Source of the DNA: Heterodontus francisci
Taxonomy: Eukaryota
NCBI RefSeq assembly: GCF_036365525.1
Contig: NC_090404.1
Span: 12,924,550-12,988,549 of the forward strand
DNA length: 64,000 nt
Direction of reading: 5' to 3'
Part shown: positions 6,432-43,154 of the stretch, one piece after another
How positions within the stretch are numbered: position 1 is the stretch's first letter
How the letters are laid out: every line of letters begins with the position of its first letter
Position numbers and translations under genes: made by a program
Notes under the pieces: model-generated
What the model saw: only the letters and a program-made list of their open reading frames with translations
What the model was told of the DNA's origin: nothing
The model's database searches: none

Positions 6432-6738
6432 ATCGGATTCATGGAGATTCTGTCACTCAGCAGCTGTCCTCAGATGTTAAGACAGAAGGAGAAGCGGTGA
6501 CTTTAAGCTGTACCTATGATACTACAATGAGCGTCTATACATTGTACTGGTATCGGCAACACCCAGATGTGCAACTGGAGTTTATACTGGGGAAGGATTC
6601 TAATAACAATGAACATAAAGCAAATTTTGCTCACACCCGTTTCTCTGCTGGGCTCCAGACCATGACTAAATTCACCAGTTTAACCATCTTGGGGCTGCAA
6701 CTGATTGACGCTGCCGTGTATTACTGTGCCTTCAGACT
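6432..6738 (+). CDS. TCR alpha/delta-type V segment, intact and unrearranged
   Basis: DRIHG-DSVTQQLSSDVKTEGEAVTLSCTYDTTMSVYTLYWYRQHPDVQLEFIL...RFSAGLQ...SLTILGLQLIDAAVYYCAFRL, with canonical Cys/Trp/YYC and acceptor TTTTCAG. Confidence 0.93.
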
Positions 6739-6777
6739 CACACTGATGGAAAGTAGTCTCACCCCTGTACAAAAACT
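6739..6777 (+). promoter_or_regulatory. 23-RSS of TCR V
   Basis: CACACTG-23 nt-ACAAAAACT. Confidence 0.92.
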
Positions 6778-11308: not shown

Positions 11309-11452
11309 CTGTAAAAGAGGGATAAAAGATTGAAGCAGAGATTTCATATCCTGAGACACTCATCAGAGTTTTTTTTTTAATCTATGAAACTTTTCGAGAT
11401 TTGTTAAACAGCTTCAGTCAAATTGAAGCATGAGTGGATTGAATATTCTCAC

Positions 11453-11580
11453 CTTCACCAGAGTGACTGCAGCACTGTAGAAAATGCTCAGGAAGAACAG
11501 GATGATGAATGTGGAAGCGGTTGTCCAGATGTTGCCGCTCTCTTCCTCATTATCATCAATCCAGATGTGGTCTGAGGAAT
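11453..11580 (-). CDS. IGHM: IgM TM1 exon
   Basis: DSSDHIWIDDNEEESGNIWTTASTFIILFFLSIFYSAAVTLVK, with the conserved antigen-receptor TM motif. TAG acceptor and GTGAG donor. Confidence 0.95.
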
Positions 11581-12084
11581 CTACAGGAATGTAGAGGAGA
11601 AGATATACTTAGATCATTAATTAGTCTAGGATATAAGATTGTTATTTTTCATTCGCACTTCTCTTCCTTAAGTTATTATTTTGTTCTCTAATTAATTTTT
11701 CAATTAATATCTATTGGTAACTTAACCACGTTGAGCATTCTATCTCTGATACTAATTCCAGAGCCGTTCTTCCTTTATGATCCTCGTTCAGGTAGTGTTG
11801 GAAAATATGTCCGTTTTTTGTTTCTTCCTTGTCAGACGCTATTTTATTTTGGATCAATTTCGTTCTACCATTAGGAATTAGGGTAAGAGATCGGATGTTC
11901 CAGAGAGAAGAGTTCCAATCTTGTTTGTTTATTTGTGATGAAAGTGATTGGCCATCATTAATTTATCTCAGCTGCTATGTGAGAACATTGCTTCATTTTG
12001 ATTACAGGTCAAATATGCATAATGGAAAGTGATTGAGAGGTTGTCTGTCAAAACGTGCATTTTGAATTCTGCTTTCGTCTATAG

Positions 12085-13816: not shown

Positions 13817-14208
13817 TCATTGACATGAATTGACAGTGTCCAACAGTGCAAGGGAAATGTTCACAAAACTGGGTTTACCGCTCGATTTATTAACTGTTCT
13901 GTTGATGATCTTCAAGGGGATCGCTTCATGTCCCACCACACAGGAGTAAGAAGCGCCGCTGGCCCACTCCTCCGCTGCAATGGATAACAGGCTGTAGATG
14001 AAGTAGGAGCTATTGTCGTTCTCCGCCATCACCTCGGTGTTCTTGTAGTTGCCGGAATTCACCGACTTGTCATTGACGGTCCACTTGACGAATATCTCTC
14101 GGGGGGAGAAACCTCTCACTAAGCAGGTGAGGGAGAGGAACCTCTGAGCAGAGACTTCTTCTGCCGGGGGCAGGAGGACAGACACAGACGGTTCCCGCAG
14201 ATGTTTAA
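13817..14208 (-). CDS. IGHM: IgM Cmu4 plus secretory tail
   Basis: [43 protein letters not shown]...[43 protein letters not shown]. Tail has the NIS sequon and a penultimate Cys. Internal donor G|GTAAA at 13879/13878 for the membrane form. Confidence 0.97.
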
Positions 14209-14706: not shown

Positions 14707-15015
14707 CTTTTTCCTTGTGGATGGACTCTCTGAGAGGAGTCGGCAGATCCTGATGGATCACCACGCAGTAGAACTCAACCTCACTCAGCCAGGATTGTGT
14801 CGAGATGTTTACAGTGCTGATCACGCTGTCGGGATCCTCTCCGGGTTGGACGGCAATCTCTGATTTCAAAGGCTTCTTTTCTTCGGTCCAGGATACGTTG
14901 ACTCCATAAGGAGCATTAGACACGACGCAGGTTAAGGTCACCGTCGCCTCCAGTAAGACCTGTTCTATTGATGGTGGCAGTAGTTTAATTACCGGATCGG
15001 AGCATGAGGGATCAA
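14707..15015 (-). CDS. IGHM: IgM Cmu3
   Basis: [43 protein letters not shown]...[22 protein letters not shown]. 309 nt, phase 1/1, CAG acceptor and GTGAG donor. Confidence 0.97.
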
Positions 15016-16270: not shown

Positions 16271-18428
16271 ATTGCACATTTATGTCTACCAATCGATTTT
16301 GTGCCTACTGCATCTCCGCTGATTACAATGGGTCGTCACTTCTGTCAGGAGCTCGACAGAAATTATGCTCGTTCTAAACAAGTGTCAAATGAAGTCCAGA
16401 ATATTAGATGCAACAGGAGACAAAATTAATTTTCTGATGCCTTTTTTGTAATTTTTTTGACGATGGAAATGTGCAGGAGCAAGTGTGTATTCTCAATCGG
16501 GGAGATATAAAATGTCGGGAGAATGGAGTTCCAAGTAGTCTTTTGTAGCACAGCGTAGTTTGTAACGTCGGCGTGAGTGACTTTGCTAAATCTATCTGAG
16601 TGATCATTCCTGATATGGCAGGCCGGTGAGAGAGACTCAGAAGGAGGTATGCCCGCAGAGCAGTCATCTGGAAATGAGGAGGCCATTCCGCCTTTAGAGC
16701 CTGTTCTGCCAATATATTAGACTATGTGTGATCTGTACCTTAAGTCTAATTATCCTCCTAGGTTCTGGAATCCTTGATATCAGTTCCTAACAAAAATCTA
16801 TTCATCACATTTTTAAACATTTCACTTGACGCCCAACCTCAACAATTTTGGGAATGAAAGTTCCAAATTGCCGCTGCCCCTTGTGTGAATAGATCCTTCC
16901 TGACATCATCTCTGCATATCTTACCTGTAATTTTAGGGTTGCAGTCTTTTGTTCTGAACTCACCTTCAGAGGAAATATTTTCTCTCCACCTACAGTATCA
17001 GTTCCATTAATCAACATAAACACCTCAATTAGATCACCCCTTAATCATCTATCCTGAAAAGAATGCAAGCCTAGCCTGTGAAACCTACCTTCAGCGCTTC
17101 TCAAGCTGAACACAGTAACCTAAATAAGGTATTTGCTGACAGTCGGGTCCTGGACAACTGCCCAGTTGCAACCGCATACTACCACTTTGAATATGATCAG
17201 CCAATCTAGGATAAAACTGAGGCCAATGACTCACTGTTCAATCTCAGAACAAAAGGACACCTTATTTCGTGAGGTTATAGAATCCTGAACCCGAAGGAAT
17301 TCTGATGCAGAAAGAATGGGGGTTCAATTCCCACTCCAGATATTTGGAGACAAGTGCAAGCTGACACGTTTAGTGTAATGCTGAGCGAGTACTGCATTGT
17401 GTGAAGTGCTGGTTTTGGGATGAGATGTTAAACCGAGGGCCTGTCTACCCTTTCAGTTGGCCATGAATTTCCTATGGCACTACCTGGAAGAAAACCAGGG
17501 GTGTTCTGTCGGTTATAAAAGCAAAACACTGAGGATGCTGAAAAGCTGGAGCAAAAGCAGAAAATGCTGGAAATACTCAGCAGGTGTGCCTGTTTCCAGG
17601 TCAACAGGCATCCCTCAACAATCATGATGAAACAAAGAAAAATCTGGTCAGTATCATATTGCTGTTTCTGGGAGCTTGCTATGCAGCAATTGGATGCAGA
17701 ATTTTGTACATTACAACAGTGAGTCTATTTCAAAAGTAATCCAATGTCAAGTCCTTTAGAACAATCTGAGGTCGCTGAAGGTGCTTTGTGCAGGAAAGGC
17801 TTTCTTTTGCATTTGCATTGGAAGGAAACAAAAAGGGCACGATTCGACATGAGGAACGAGACTGGGGCGTAGTGGTAATGTCAGTGAACGAGTAATTCAG
17901 AGGCACAGGCTAATATTCTGGGGACATGAGTTCAAATGCCACCATGGTAGCTGGTAGAATTTGAATTCAATTAATTATTTTTTTAAATTGCATTTAAAGC
18001 TATGGTGCCATGCCACTACCATAGATTGTTATAAAACCCCATCTGGTTCACCAATGCCCTTTAGGGAAGTAAATCTGACATCCTTACCTGGTCTGACCTA
18101 TATGTGACTACAGACTCACAGCAATGTGGTTGACTCTTAACTGATCTCTAAAACTTGAATGATCAGCCATGATCATAATGAATGGCGGAGCAGGCTCGAA
18201 GGGCCGAACGGCCTACTCCTGCTCCTATTTTCCTTTTTTCTAAAATGCCTTCGCAAGCCACTTAGCTATCAAGGACAATTGGGGATGGGAAACGAAATCT
18301 GGCCTTGCCAGCGATGTCCACATTTCATGAAAGAATAAATAATTGCGGGCTTTGTAATAATTGTAATAAATTCTTAGCTTTGACTAAGATCAGAATGACT
18401 TGGAAATATTTAGGGTTGTGTCTCTTAC

Positions 18429-18740
18429 CCTGAGATCTGGTGAAGTTTCGGCTTTGGGTGACCCCTTTATGAGAGACCTGGCAGGTATAGACCGTGTTGG
18501 TGAACCATTCCCCAGCGGGGACTGTCACTCGGCTGGTCGCCGAGAAGTTCCCGTTCACTTCATAGGCGGGAGAGTTGACGACGCCCGAATCCATGGGTTG
18601 TCCATTCTTCAGCCAAGTCACATTAATTAATTTTGGACGGAAATCGATGATTGAACAGACGGCGGTTGCAAACCTGCTGCTTGAGATTTCTTCACTGGAA
18701 CTCTGGGTGGCGATAATAGTTGGATGATGTACCACATGAT
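18429..18740 (-). CDS. IGHM: IgM Cmu2
   Basis: [47 protein letters not shown]...[20 protein letters not shown]. 312 nt, TAG acceptor and GTAAG donor. Confidence 0.96.
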
Positions 18741-19455
18741 CTACAGGAAAATACATATTATCGGAAGTTAAATTTGTTGACATTCAAACAATTAACAACT
18801 GTGGAGCGTTTTACATAGACTCTACAAATCAGGGACAGACCATTCGATCCAACTGTTCGATGCTGGAGTTTGTGCTCCACTCGAGCATCCTTTCACTCTA
18901 CTTCATTTCGCTGTATCAAAATAAACTTCCATTCCTTGTCCCCGCATATACTTATCCAGCTTCCTCTTAAAGGCATCTATGCTATTCGCCTCAACTAAGG
19001 TAAGTTCTACATTCTGGCTGCTCTCTGGGTAAAATAGCTTCTCCTGAATTCCCAATTGGCTTTTTAGTCATTATGTTATATGCATGACTTCCAGTTTAGG
19101 TCTAACCTGTCGTTTCGGTCACACCTCTGCCTTCTCTTTTGTAGAGAAAAGGCCACCAGCCTAGTCAATCTTTGACAGTTATAATCTCTCCGTTCGAGCA
19201 TCGTCCTTGTAATAGTTTTTGGTTCCTTCTCCAGTGCCCCTGTATCATTCTCCTAATATGGAGTACTCTATGTGCGACATGGAGACCAGAGCTATATATT
19301 CAGTATGCTAAGTGTGATAGGGAGACCAGGACTATGCACAATTGTCTAAGTCTTGTTTAACCAATTGTGTCTACAATTTGAGCATCAATTCTCTAATTAT
19401 CACCGTTCCACATCATCATCCCCCACCGCCGACCCCTGTGTCCCTCAACACCAAC

Positions 19456-19755
19456 CTGGCATTTCCTTGCTCCAGACCGACTCGCCACGTCGAACCTCGC
19501 AGTAGATTTTGCTGCTTCCCACCTCTGACTCGGTGATGGTTAACTGGCTGCTCAGGGTGTAGGTTCCCTTCTTGTTCAGCACTGACGGGTAAGTCTTCAA
19601 TCCAGTGGTGATCGGCTCGTTATTTTTCTTCCAGGAAATGGCCGTGATTTCAGGGGTGTAATCCATTGCCAAACAACCATAGGCCAAGGAGCCGTCGGTG
19701 TTGGGTTGTTCACAGAAGCCGAACAGGCCGTAGAGGGTGGGGGGAGACGGTGTCG
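19456..19755 (-). CDS. IGHM: IgM Cmu1
   Basis: [44 protein letters not shown]...[17 protein letters not shown]. 300 nt, keeps the N-terminal Cys expected for light-chain pairing. Confidence 0.97.
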
Positions 19756-20164
19756 CTGAGAAGGAATGTCAGAGTTAAAATGTTAGAATCTGTGAACCAT
19801 GCTTACAAAATAACGAGAGAAGTCGAAGTTTGACTACAGTTATAATCTAATTCCAACGTTTTCCGATAAATGCCTTCTTTTTCTGAGTTGAAAGAGATGA
19901 AGTGAATGGTCTTCATGTAACTCCAGTCTTGTACATCAGGGAAGGCACGAGTCTGAAAGAGGCATTCTTTCCCTGAGGCCCGTAATAAGGACTGAATGTC
20001 CAATAATGTATCCTGTACTTCCTCCAGCTCTTGATCCCTTGTTGAGGAACCCTGCTCTCATTCTCCAACCACTTTCACACTAGGTTGCTCCACATTTAAT
20101 CCACTGATCTCCTCGCTATATCCTTTTGCTGTCAACATCCTATTATCAACATAAAACTGGACCA

Positions 20165-32200: not shown

Positions 32201-32805
32201 GGGTGATATTACTAAAGTATAATAAGTGAAATTATATTAATTTAAATCTGAGCAATGCTGAAAATGTGTTAATTATGCAGTTCTTAGTTACAGTAACAGT
32301 TCATGTATTATATATGAGCGTTCATAAGCATTAGATTAAAGATAACAATTTAATTATTACGAATAAAAATAGATTAAAGTATCGTAATGATATTTTGATG
32401 GCTAAAGCTTTCTGCCCACAATCCTATTTGAAACATATTTTAGCACTTAATGTTTGTATTCGTTCAGAAAAGCTGTGGCAACAAAATATCACCGAGATTC
32501 AACAATGTGGAAATGCCAAACTGCTTAACAACATTTCGGTATTTAAAGTAACACAGGCACACAGACTCATCAGCAGATAAACACCAAATCACATAAAACA
32601 GGCACTGAATCCCTCAGTAGCATCGTTTGTAGAGAAACAGCTGTATTCTCTAATCCCTTTGCACCACAATCAAATGAAACATTGCAAACAATTTCAATAT
32701 AAAATCAACCGAACCCACGTTTCAGTTAATCAATGAATGGCTAAAATAAGAGAAATATAGAATAAAGACACAAATAAAACCTTTACTGAATGAGCTGTTT
32801 CTTAC

Positions 32806-32853
32806 CTGCAGTCACCGTCACCATGGTCCCTTGTCCCCAGTAGTCCATGATGT
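32806..32853 (-). CDS. IGHJ: JH segment (IMDYWGQGTMVTVTA)
   Basis: WGxG motif and donor GTAAG. RSS heptamer 32854-32860 (CACAGTG), 23-nt spacer, nonamer ACAATAACC at 32884-32892. Confidence 0.97.
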
Positions 32854-33234
32854 CACAGTGTTACATTCCCTGGGCTGGGTCACACAATAACCGGCTTTGC
32901 ACAGAATAGAGAGAAATCCAACATTAGTTTAAATGTTGCTAAATCAGAGGCAAAGTAAAGCCACGATGGATCTTCATTAAAATATAAGTGTGTTAATGGT
33001 ATTTTTCAATGTTTATAAATGATCCTGACGTTTTATATTGCATCGGGTAATCCATGAACATGCTATCGAAATCAGCAATGGTGAATTAATAATTATCATA
33101 ATTCATCCATATTAAACTGTGCTAGAAGCAAATGCTACTTTATTGCATATACAGCTGGATTGTAAAAGCGAGCAAGGACCCAGATTCAATCAATTAGTGC
33201 AGAGGGACTTTTTGTATTGACAGTAACTGCTGTG

Positions 33235-33247
33235 CCACCCAGTATAA
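33235..33247 (-). other. DH2 segment (TTATACTGGGTGG); V-side 22-RSS, J-side 12-RSS
   Basis: V-side CACGGTA(33248-54)-22-ACAAAAACC(33277-85). J-side CACAGCA(33234-28)-12-ACAAAAAGT(33215-07). Confidence 0.93.
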
Positions 33248-33627
33248 CACGGTACTGTACAGAGCGAGTTTCTTATACAAAAACCCCAGACAGCGGATGT
33301 GCTCAAACCTACGATCTCTACCACGGCAGGAACTTCGAAGGAAATGAGTCTTAAATTGAAGTAATTGCTAGAAGTATTAGAGATTTGTAAAAATGTATAA
33401 AATTCTTCTGGTTTGTAAGTGTTGACTGACATGCAAAATCTGGACAGATACTTTTAAGAGTATTTCAATCTCCTTTGCACATATAATGACCAGTGTGAAC
33501 TGAAATGTCTCACTGATGCACACTTAGGGTAGTCGGAATCAGGTTTCTGAGAACTCTGTGGAATTTAATCTCTGTGTTTTACAGTTAATAGTCCACCTCA
33601 GTATTTGACACGGTGTGTCTCACTGTG

Positions 33628-33644
33628 ATACCCACTGTAGTACC
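33628..33644 (-). other. DH1 segment (GGTACTACAGTGGGTAT); 12-RSS on both sides
   Basis: V-side CACTGTG(33645-51)-12-ACAAATACT(33664-72). J-side CACAGTG(33627-21)-12-TCAAATACT(33608-00). Confidence 0.93.
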
Positions 33645-34019
33645 CACTGTGACACGAACCCGCACAAATACTCTTTCATTGCCATTGTCAGAATAAAATC
33701 GCTCAGTCAACAGAAGGTTTTGCAGATTTTGATTATCCATCTATGAGTTTTTCCTCAGAATGGCGGATTTGGACTAAAATTGGCCCCCATTGATAGAATA
33801 TCAACGATTTCATTGACTCCCTTTTCGCCAATGCTGGGCACTGCAAGCAGTACCCGCGGGTCCTTATCCTTATTAGCTTGGTTAATGTGAATTTTATTTT
33901 AACCTATTTATTGCTGTATCAAATACATCCTTCTAGTCTAAGTTAAAAACATCTCAATGTATATCATACCATTACTGACCGTTAGCTTTGGACGGGATGT
34001 GCTGCAAATTTTATCACTC

Positions 34020-34058
34020 TGTTTCTGTACGAGCCCAGGATTTGCTTGGGTCGCAGTG
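34020..34058 (-). promoter_or_regulatory. 23-RSS of VH
   Basis: CACTGCG-23 nt-ACAGAAACA. Confidence 0.9.
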
Positions 34059-34361
34059 GGTCTCTTGCACAGTAATACATGGCGGTGTCTTCGGATCTCA
34101 GACTTTTGATCTCAATATAGGTTGTGGAAGAGGCTCTGGAAGGAATGATTCGACCTTGGACTCCAGGCGCGTAATAGATGGTATCCGATGGTTTTCTGTA
34201 AGCAAGGAGCCACTCCAGCCCCTTCCCTGGAGCTTGCTTAACCCAGTGCACATAGTAGCTGTCCAGACTGAATCCGCTCACGGAGCAGGAAAGCTTGTGA
34301 GATTCTCCGGGCTTTTTCGTCACCGAAGCTGACTGGGTCAGCACAATATCGGACCGGACAT
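34059..34361 (-). CDS. IGHV: VH exon, intact, IgW-like sequence
   Basis: YVRS-DIVLTQSASVTKKPGESHKLSCSVSGFSLDSYYVHWVKQAPGKGLEWLLAYRKPSDTIYYAPGVQGRIIPSRASSTTYIEIKSLRSEDTAMYYCARD. CAG acceptor at 34364-34362. Confidence 0.96.
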
Positions 34362-34483: not shown

Positions 34484-34529
34484 AGGTGAAGCAAGCCAGC
34501 AGCACACAGAGGCACGGGGCAAGTCCCAT
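34484..34529 (-). CDS. IGHV: VH leader exon (MGLAPCLCVLLACFT)
   Basis: ATG at 34529, 46 nt, phase-1 donor GTGAGT, in frame with the V exon. Confidence 0.93.
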
Positions 34530-40363: not shown

Positions 40364-42375
40364 TTCTTTTGGGCCTCCTTATCTCGAGAGACAATGGATA
40401 CGCGCCTGGAGGTGGTCAGTGGTTTGTGAAGCAGCGCCTGGAGTGGCTATAAAGGCCAATTCTGGAGTGACAGGCTCTTCCACAGGTGCTGCAGAGAAAT
40501 TTGTTTGTTGGGGCTGTTGCACAGTTGGCTATCCCCTTGCGCCTCTGTCTTTTTTCCTGCCAACTACTAAGTCTCTTCGACTCGCCACAATTTAGCCCTG
40601 TCTTTATGGCTGCCCGCCAGCTCTGGCGAATGCTGGCAACTGACTCCCACGACTTGTGATCAATGTCACACGATTTCATGTCGCGTTTGCAGACGTCTTT
40701 ATAACGGAGACATGGACGGCCGGTGGGTCTGATACCAGTGGCGAGCTCGCTGTACAATGTGTCTTTGGGGATCCTGCCATCTTCCATGCGGCTCACATGG
40801 CCAAGCCATCTCAAGCGCCGCTGACTCAGTAGTGTGTATAAGCTGGGGATGTTGGCCGCTTCAAGGACTTCTGTGTTGGAGATATAGTCCTGCCACCTGA
40901 TGCCAAGTATTCTCCGAAGGCAGCGAAGATGGAATGAATTGAGACGTCGCTCTTGGCTGGCATACGTTGTCCAGGCCTCGCTGCCGTAGAGCAAGGTACT
41001 GAGGACACAGGCCTGATACACTCGGACTTTTGTGTTCCGTGTCAGTGCGCCATTTTCCCACACTCTCTTGGCCAGTCTGAACATAGCAGTGGAAGCCTTA
41101 CCCATGCGCTTGTTGATTTCTGCATCTAGAGACAGGTTACTGGTGATAGTTGAGCCTAGGTAGGTGAACTCTTGAACCACTTCCAGAGCGTGGTCGCCAA
41201 TATTGATGGATGGAGCATTTCTGACATCCTGCCCCATGATGTTCGTTTTCTTGAGGCTGATGGTTAGGCCAAATTCATTGCAGGCAGACGCAAACCTGTC
41301 GATGAGACTCTGCAGGCATTCTTCAGTGTGAGATGTTAAAGCAGCATCGTCAGCAAAGAGGAGTTCTCTGATGAGGACTTTCCGTACTTTGGACTTCGCT
41401 CTTAGACGGGCAAGGTTGAACAACCTGCCCCCTGATCTTGTGTGGAGGAAAATTCCTTCTTCAGAGGATTTGAACGCATGTGAAAGCAGCAGGGAGAAGA
41501 AAATCCCAAAAAGTGTGGGTGCGAGAACACAGCCCTGTTTCACACCACTCAGGATAGGAAAGGGCTCTGATGAGGAGCCACCATGTTGAATTGTGCCTTT
41601 CATATTGTCATGGAATGAGGTGATGATACTTAGTAGCTTTGGTGGACATCCGATCTTTTCTAGTAGTCTGAAGAGACCACGTCTGCTGACGAGGTCAAAG
41701 GCTTTGGTGAGATCAATGAAAGCAATGTAGAGGGGCATCTGTTGTTCACGGCATTTCTCCTGTATCTGACGAAGGGAGAACAGCATGTCAATAGTCGATC
41801 TCTCTGCACGAAAGCCACACTGTGCCTCAGGGTAGACGCGCTCGGCCAGCTTCTGGAGCCTGTTCAGAGCGACTCGAGCAAAGACTTTCCCCACTATGCT
41901 GAGCAGGGAGATTCCACGGTAGTTGTTGCAGTCACCGCGGTCACCTTTGTTTTTATAGAGGGTGATGATGTTGGCATCGCGCATGTCCTGGGGTACTGCT
42001 CCCTCGTCCCAGCACAGGCATAGCAGTTCATGTAGTGCTGAGAGTATAGCAGGCTTGGCACTCTTGATTATTTCAGGGGTAATGCTGTCCTTCCCAGGGG
42101 CTTTTCCGCTGGCTAGGGAATCAATGGCATCACTGAGTTCCGATTTGGTTGGCTGTATGTCCAGCTCATCCATGACTGGTAGAGGCTGGGCTGCATTGAG
42201 GGCAGTCTCAGTGACAGCATTCTCCCTGGAGTACAGTTCTAGGTAGTGCTCAACCCAGCGGTCCATCTGTTTGCGTTGGTCAGTGATTATGTCCCCCGAT
42301 TTAGATTTGAGGGGGGTGATCTTCTTGATGGTTGGCCCAAGAGCTCTCTTCATGCCATCATACATTCCTCTGATG
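40364..42375 (-). mobile_element. Young 5'-truncated RTE-clade LINE with an uninterrupted 649-aa ORF
   Basis: ORF 40416-42365: NYRGISLL, FIDLTKAFD, GVKQGCVLAP, LLFADD, RRLRWLGHV, and C-terminal CxxC..H...C. Short 3' UTR. Confidence 0.95.
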
Positions 42376-43154
42376 GATTTGTATAAATGGGTGGTTGATG
42401 GTCGGCATGGGCTCGTTGGGCCGAAGGGCCTGTTTCGGTGCTGTATCTCTCTATGACTCTATGATTTGATGCAGAAGTAACTGAGGCTGTGATATAAACA
42501 GAATCATGATTTAGTGCTTTATAACTGATAGAGGGCCCAGTTGATCTCATGAACCAGCACACTCTCCTCGTCACAGCTTTACTGATGAGGTGGACAATTA
42601 AAACTCCTATCTCTCCCACACGCTGTCCTTGTCAGCATTCCGCCCGTCAACCAAGATCAAAAAAATACATGAACAGGAATTGAGCCACTTTGCACTTTTG
42701 CTGATGTTTCTGTCCGCAAATCTGCAAATATTACATTTTAAATTCTGTGTGACATCCTGGCGAAGATAATGATCTGGAACACGAGTGAAAGCTGTTTCTT
42801 CATACATTAATTCTATCATTATCAGAAACAGTAACTGACATTGACATTTTCACGATTGGAGCAATGGCAAGCATTGGTCACCAGGGGGCAGTGAAATTCT
42901 GAATGTTTACATGACGAGAAACAGACACTGCCTCAATTATTACTGCATTACAGCATGCTTCTGTTCATATTACAGTAGGCCCTGTCTCAGTCATTTCTGC
43001 ACTAGACCATGTCTCTGCTTATACTACAGTAGGTCCTGTCTCAGTGGCTACTGCACTAGGACAGGTCTCCTTTTGTAACGCGAGGCCCTGTCTCTGGTAT
43101 TACTGCAGGAGAACATGTCTCTGTTCATAATACACTGGGCCCTGTCTCAGTTAT

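Follow-up and report, generated by a model that had tools for sequence, protein, structure and literature searches.

An inverted D1-D2 spacer in an IgM heavy-chain cluster of the horn shark: probable germline hybrid joining by RAG

Introduction

Two horned shark V-D-D-J-C clusters were described by Lewis and Wu (2000) as being related by an inverted, signal-terminated D1-D2 sequence (PMC2193153). According to the same paper, which cites Kokubu et al. 1988, hybrid joints predict this inversion exactly, its origin by RAG is "almost certain", and it shows how 12 and 23 signals can swap (PMC2193153). It is a textbook case of such a swap in evolution, and could account for the differences in signal layout between antibody and T-cell receptor loci.

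The window, by which we mean the whole stretch of 64,000 nucleotides analysed here (G000:C34:12,924,550-12,988,549, in a 6.0-Gb genome), contains a cluster with the same inversion. A sequence-only reading of the window had cautioned that a similar case might already be described. This was correct; the inversion is published, which removes its novelty. Since its description dates from 1988 and its interpretation from 2000 at the latest, confirmation adds little, and what the genome adds is polarity and a working gene.

The gene reported by Kokubu and colleagues in 1988 is said to have the layout 12/12, 22/12. We take the variant inverted cluster to be both clone 1113 and the monotypic second VH family of Hinds-Frey and colleagues (1993). 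The text index of that Heterodontus paper (Hinds-Frey et al. 1993; PMC2191167) has one occurrence each of the window's 12-nt D1 end, of its 13-nt D2 and of the word "inverted", and 30 of "1113". Because both D sequences are indexed there and were absent from the paralogues examined, the window cluster is, on the strength of the index, very probably the gene of the 1993 paper; we infer from the same index that its D sequences belong to clone 1113.

The IgM cluster in the window

On its minus strand the window carries an IgM heavy-chain cluster that is complete and expressed. It comprises a leader, V, D1, D2, J, four C-mu exons, a secretory tail and a transmembrane region. All of its exons are open, and together they make up a shark IgM cluster unit. 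The features are as follows, in the order of transcription:

34484..34529, minus: leader exon, with ATG at 34529 and a GT donor; spliced contigs connect 34484 to 34361
34059..34361, minus: VH exon, open, of a divergent family (64% nucleotide identity to the main family, 85% to cluster L031)
34020..34058, minus: V 23-RSS, heptamer 34058-34052, CACTGCG-23-ACAGAAACA
33645..33672, plus: D1 5' 12-RSS, collinear with paralogues
33628..33644, minus: D1, 17 nt long; AT at the new junction is added to the usual 15 nt
33248..33627, no strand assigned: inverted 380-bp D1-D2 spacer including its two signals, defined by reverse alignment to paralogues and a breakpoint scan
33600..33627, minus: 12-RSS now 3' of D1, CACAGTG-12-TCAAATACT; in paralogues the D2 5' signal
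33248..33285, plus: 22-RSS now 5' of D2, CACGGTA-22-ACAAAAACC; in paralogues the D1 3' signal
33235..33247, minus: D2, 13 nt, first base T, which is A in most paralogues
33207..33234, minus: D2 3' 12-RSS, collinear with paralogues
32854..32892, plus: J 23-RSS
32806..32853, minus: JH segment IMDYWGQGTMVTVTA with a GT donor; contigs depart from the window sequence at 32806
19455..19760 (approximate ends), minus: C-mu 1 exon
18420..18730 (approximate ends), minus: C-mu 2 exon
14720..15010 (approximate ends), minus: C-mu 3 exon
13820..14200 (approximate ends), minus: C-mu 4 exon and secretory tail
11445..11585 (approximate ends), minus: transmembrane exon 1

Among 63 protein matches to the window VH the best is catshark P0001, with 84% amino acid identity, and no horn shark record is found among them. 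A third member of the V family to which the window and L031 belong, L032 (12.776 Mb), is interrupted and retains the leader and V start only. Tail to tail with the IgM cluster lies an open T-cell receptor alpha/delta-type V exon (6440-6777, plus strand) with a 23-signal at 6739. A LINE-type reverse transcriptase open frame of 680 codons occupies 40419-42458 on the minus strand, and many shorter LINE fragments are found elsewhere in the window. Between V and D1, 48 nt (33813-33860) are missing from one X5 contig and present in an X6 contig, a difference which probably represents a second allele in the V-D1 intron.

Signal layout and inversion of the spacer

The sequence-only reading gave the signal layout of this minus-strand cluster as V-23 / 12-D1-12 / 22-D2-12 / 23-J, and all six signals lie where it placed them. 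The standard layout, D1 12/22 and D2 12/12, is that of the paralogues; the window has 12/12 and 22/12. No usable D1 3' nonamer is present at long spacing, as had been stated: the positions 21-24 nt from the heptamer show mismatches at 6-8 of 9 bases. Likewise, no nonamer lies 12 nt from the D2 5' heptamer (8 of 9 mismatches).

The 380-bp D1-D2 spacer is inverted in the inherited genome. In the comparison which the sequence-only reading had proposed as a check, 33248-33627 matches the paralogues in reverse at 74-80% identity (E values of 4e-81 to 4e-53), whereas the D1 5' signal and the D2-J intron are collinear with them in local alignments against 29 paralogues. A genome search with 32800-34100 gave the same picture, with window positions 33630-33248 on the opposite strand from their flanks in cluster after cluster. 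The DNA between D1 and D2 is thus inverted between collinear flanks, and the swapped signals form a 12/23-compatible pair with exchanged coding ends; both features are those of a hybrid joint.

The likeness between the D1 3' RSS and the D1 5' RSS, to which the earlier reading had pointed, is real, but the stronger clue is the D2 5' signal of the paralogues, since that of L018 and L025 agrees with the window D1 3' signal letter for letter. Duplication of the D1 5' signal was considered as a source of the 12-signal 3' of D1 and rejected, given that the reversal covers all 380 bp and that this signal is matched by the one 5' of D2 in the paralogues.

Spacer copies in the genome and polarity of the inversion

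A genome search with the spacer alone found at least 29 copies, which lie on a single contig from 4.0 to 13.8 Mb, and all 29 candidates were scored. The swap is shared by none of the 28 other copies found, so that the window is the sole instance, one in 29. Twenty-seven of the others are in the standard direction (26 full-length and one, L033, partial). The remaining copy, L039, lies inside a larger inversion and still has its 22-signal at D1 and its 12-signal at D2. The two outcomes that had been named as speaking against an inversion are therefore absent: the spacer does not align collinearly, and a 12/12, 22/12 layout occurs in 0 of 28 other copies.

The closest V relative of the window is L031 at 13.76 Mb (G000:C34:13,761,700-13,762,630), a germline-joined VD-DJ cluster whose spacer is in the standard direction. 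Since both this sister and the main family are standard, the inversion in the window is derived. The pairing of the window with L031 rests on unrooted trees, with support of 0.85 for the spacer, 0.84 for the intron and 0.94 for V, which is modest outside V. Identity to the main family is 77.2% for the spacer and 77.6% for the J-C intron; this equal divergence argues that the spacer is native and was flipped in place, and import from another cluster was rejected for the same reason.

Breakpoints and junction bases

The block had been described as bounded exactly by two heptamers. The inversion does end at the heptamers, within 0-3 nt, but the exact edge is one mismatch worse. When the block was flipped back in silico and compared with 13 paralogues, the best score (268.2) was shared by four tied pairs of ends lying 1-3 nt outside a heptamer, against 266.3 for the exact heptamer edges and 12.5 for no inversion.

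Paralogous D1 segments are mostly 15 nt long and D2 segments mostly 13 nt. At the new junction the window D1 is longer by two bases (AT), which are the reverse complement of the usual first two bases of D2, and the window D2 begins with T instead of A. These extra bases and the changed first base are probably marks of end processing. Bases are lost and added at hybrid joints (PMC2193153, Fig. 1 legend), and the bases at both junctions would fit hybrid joints with small losses or additions and also a short staggered break. The two heptamers at the block ends are inverted repeats at six of seven positions and have a common TCAC flank. No 5-bp target duplication is present at the block flanks, where only a 4-bp match with one mismatch was found (GTAT / TTAT).

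Origin of the inversion

We consider it most likely, with a probability of about 0.8, that the spacer was inverted by RAG cutting at the D1 3' 22-signal and the D2 5' 12-signal in an ancestral germ cell. In such a cell RAG would pair these two signals and cut both, and each signal end would then be rejoined to the coding end of the other D, giving two reciprocal hybrid joints. This mechanism had been proposed in the sequence-only reading and is the one already published (PMC2193153); our results support it, while RAG as the enzyme and a germ cell as the cell type are deduced from the sequence. The block ends coincide with a legal 12/22 pair, and the heptamers have been kept. In the same locus of this one assembly there are D1-D2 coding joints (L026 and L037) and V-D-D joints (L007, L029, L030, L038 and L040). 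D2 is shortened on the side of the same 12-signal in seven of 26 free D2 segments, to 10, 10, 10, 10, 9, 9 and 7 nt, and by the trees these fall into about four lineages. Because the locus holds these other RAG products in the assembly, a germline RAG origin of the inversion is favoured.

An ordinary germline inversion without RAG is unlikely. It would have arisen from staggered breaks and end joining, or from a template switch between the near-palindromic heptamers, and would have survived with its signals intact. The best-scoring breakpoints include ends outside the heptamers, the added AT mirrors the usual first bases of D2 as it would after a staggered break, and the inverted heptamer repeats with their common flank could guide a template switch. 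Pure template switching, however, predicts zero added bases. Moreover, both ends lie at a 12/22 pair, in a locus with exact signal joints (see below) and many coding joints, all of which RAG explains directly.

More doubtful still is transposition by RAG, in which D1 and D2 were joined after excision of the spacer, which was then reinserted in reverse into that joint. The 4-base flanks, matching at three of four positions, are possibly a decayed 4-bp target duplication, but a duplication of 5 bp (sometimes 3-4 bp) is expected and the 5-bp form is absent. Two steps are required, with insertion exactly at the fresh joint, and site-specific recombination is favoured for this inversion in PMC2193153.

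It is very improbable, and largely refuted, that the layout reflects an error of assembly or a somatic event picked up from lymphocytes. The DNA runs containing the stretch may themselves be what the assembly was built from, but the cluster-unique D1 end and D2 sequence occur in the text index of the 1993 paper (PMC2191167), a genomic clone with this layout has been reported (PMC2193153), and two rearranged contigs carry the AT end of D1.

Rearrangement and D usage

The window cluster rearranges and is spliced, as contigs from one sample contain its leader-V splice and three in-frame V-D-J junctions with its V end and J. That the sample is RNA is a guess; it possibly comes from the animal of the assembly, and no run containing the stretch is recorded as RNA. 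At 90% likeness the contigs mixed the junctions of all clusters and were unusable for D usage. At 100% likeness, among the junctions listed (12 of 20), nine with the J ends of other clusters were dropped. Read by hand, the first junction of the window cluster contains 12 nt of D1, including its AT end, followed by 5 nt of D2, and the second contains 10 nt of D1, including AT, with D2 not recognisable. The third is G-rich and undecidable, with a 6-nt match to D2 and one of 5 nt to D1.

Under the 12/23 rule, a standard cluster permits V-D2 joining by deletion and forbids D1-J joining. By the same rule the window cluster permits D1-J joining, and V-D2 joining by deletion is barred. The functional consequence suggested earlier, that D1 is obligatory for deletional joining and D2 can be skipped, is consistent with the three junctions, which test it weakly. 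As D1-D2 joining is still permitted, the effect of the inversion on the repertoire is probably small. In nurse shark the end products listed in the accessible part of PMC2435157 are VD1D2J, which suggests that D skipping may be a minor route. The inverted gene keeps all of its signals and is fully rearrangeable.

Other RAG-type products in the locus

Fused heptamers with a 22/23 spacer behind them were sought by pattern; seven matches resulted, and none in the control. Five of the seven are exact 12/23 signal joints in the IgM locus. The other two, on other contigs, lack nonamers and were rejected as chance-like.

One signal joint lies at 4.25 Mb (L039 / L047, G000:C34:4,251,200-4,252,800), where the D1 5' 12-signal is fused exactly to the J 23-signal. 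The D1-D2-J-intron block is inverted here, and the corresponding coding joint consists of reversed D1, the 2-nt palindromic insert GG and full J. Here the assembly shows an inversional V(D)J event in full, and its V could still be able to join the reversed D segments.

The remaining four (L048-L051, G000:C34:6,700,545-6,730,153) are identical copies in alternating orientation (+ - + -), in each of which an exact signal joint comes after an IgM V. This joins an IgM D1 5' 12-signal to a 23-signal with 97% similarity to that of the T-cell receptor-type V at 6,856,305, and its sequence suggests germline recombination between IgM and T-cell receptor segments. If true, the joint would represent germline recombination between two receptor loci. 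The four copies could result from palindromic amplification or from misassembly. The coding partner of the joint was not found in the 110 kb around it or among the five members found of that V family. In the accessible part of PMC12227049, IgH is linked to T-cell receptor alpha-delta. At 1.44-2.02 Mb on the same contig (L041-L043, G000:C34) there are Ig-type V clusters in which a D with the IgM D2 core is followed by a 23-signal, as in T-cell receptor delta; L042 has two such D copies.

The shortened D2 segments (L011, L013, L020, L022, L023, L027 and L034) measure 10, 9 or 7 nt, and in each of them the missing bases are those of the 5' end, next to the heptamer. They are possibly germline open-and-shut joints, judging by where they are shortened; in L013 an AT repeat that slipped could also account for the loss. 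IgM clusters that are joined in part or completely, a known class, are L002, L007, L026, L028-L030, L033, L036-L038, L040, L044 and L045; their forms are VD-D-J, V-DD-J, VDD-J, V-DJ with a deletion, and VDDJ.

We lean slightly towards the view that the inherited locus keeps all four outcomes of RAG activity: coding joints, hybrid joints, open-and-shut joints (D2 shortened by 3-6 nt in about four lineages) and signal joints, including that between the IgM D1 12-signal and the T-cell receptor V 23-signal. The signal joints, coding joints and trimmed D2 segments were all read from one assembly. Germline signal-joint events are listed as postulated, without shark evidence, in PMC2193153. In a search that reached a minority of the shark literature, no paper was found that describes signal joints in the shark germline or shark D segments of the open-and-shut kind. 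If germline and unpublished, the signal joints and trimmed D2 segments matter more than the inversion.

Comparison with known systems

The closest system is the variant horn shark cluster (Kokubu et al. 1988, as discussed in PMC2193153), which has the same inversion, the same signal swap and the same proposed mechanism; no difference was found. The abstract of Hinds-Frey et al. speaks of a "monotypic second gene family" (PMC2191167), and the window V is likewise far from the main family. In the assembly, however, the family is not strictly monotypic, as it includes the germline-joined sister L031 in the standard direction. This sister and the genome-wide count, one inverted spacer among 29, are what is new here.

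In the hybrid joints of V(D)J recombination (Lewis et al. 1988, as cited in PMC2193153), 12- and 23-type signals swap their coding ends with inversion of the intervening DNA, and small losses or additions of bases are tolerated. Such joints are normally somatic and rare, whereas the inversion in the window is fixed in the inherited genome. Inherited RAG-type cuts at signals, with trimming and P additions, are described for the germline-joined shark immunoglobulin genes, such as the NS4 light chains of nurse shark, in the accessible part of Lee et al. 2000 (PMC2193156). Those genes, as presented there, are coding joints from which the signals have been removed, whereas the event in the window has kept every signal.
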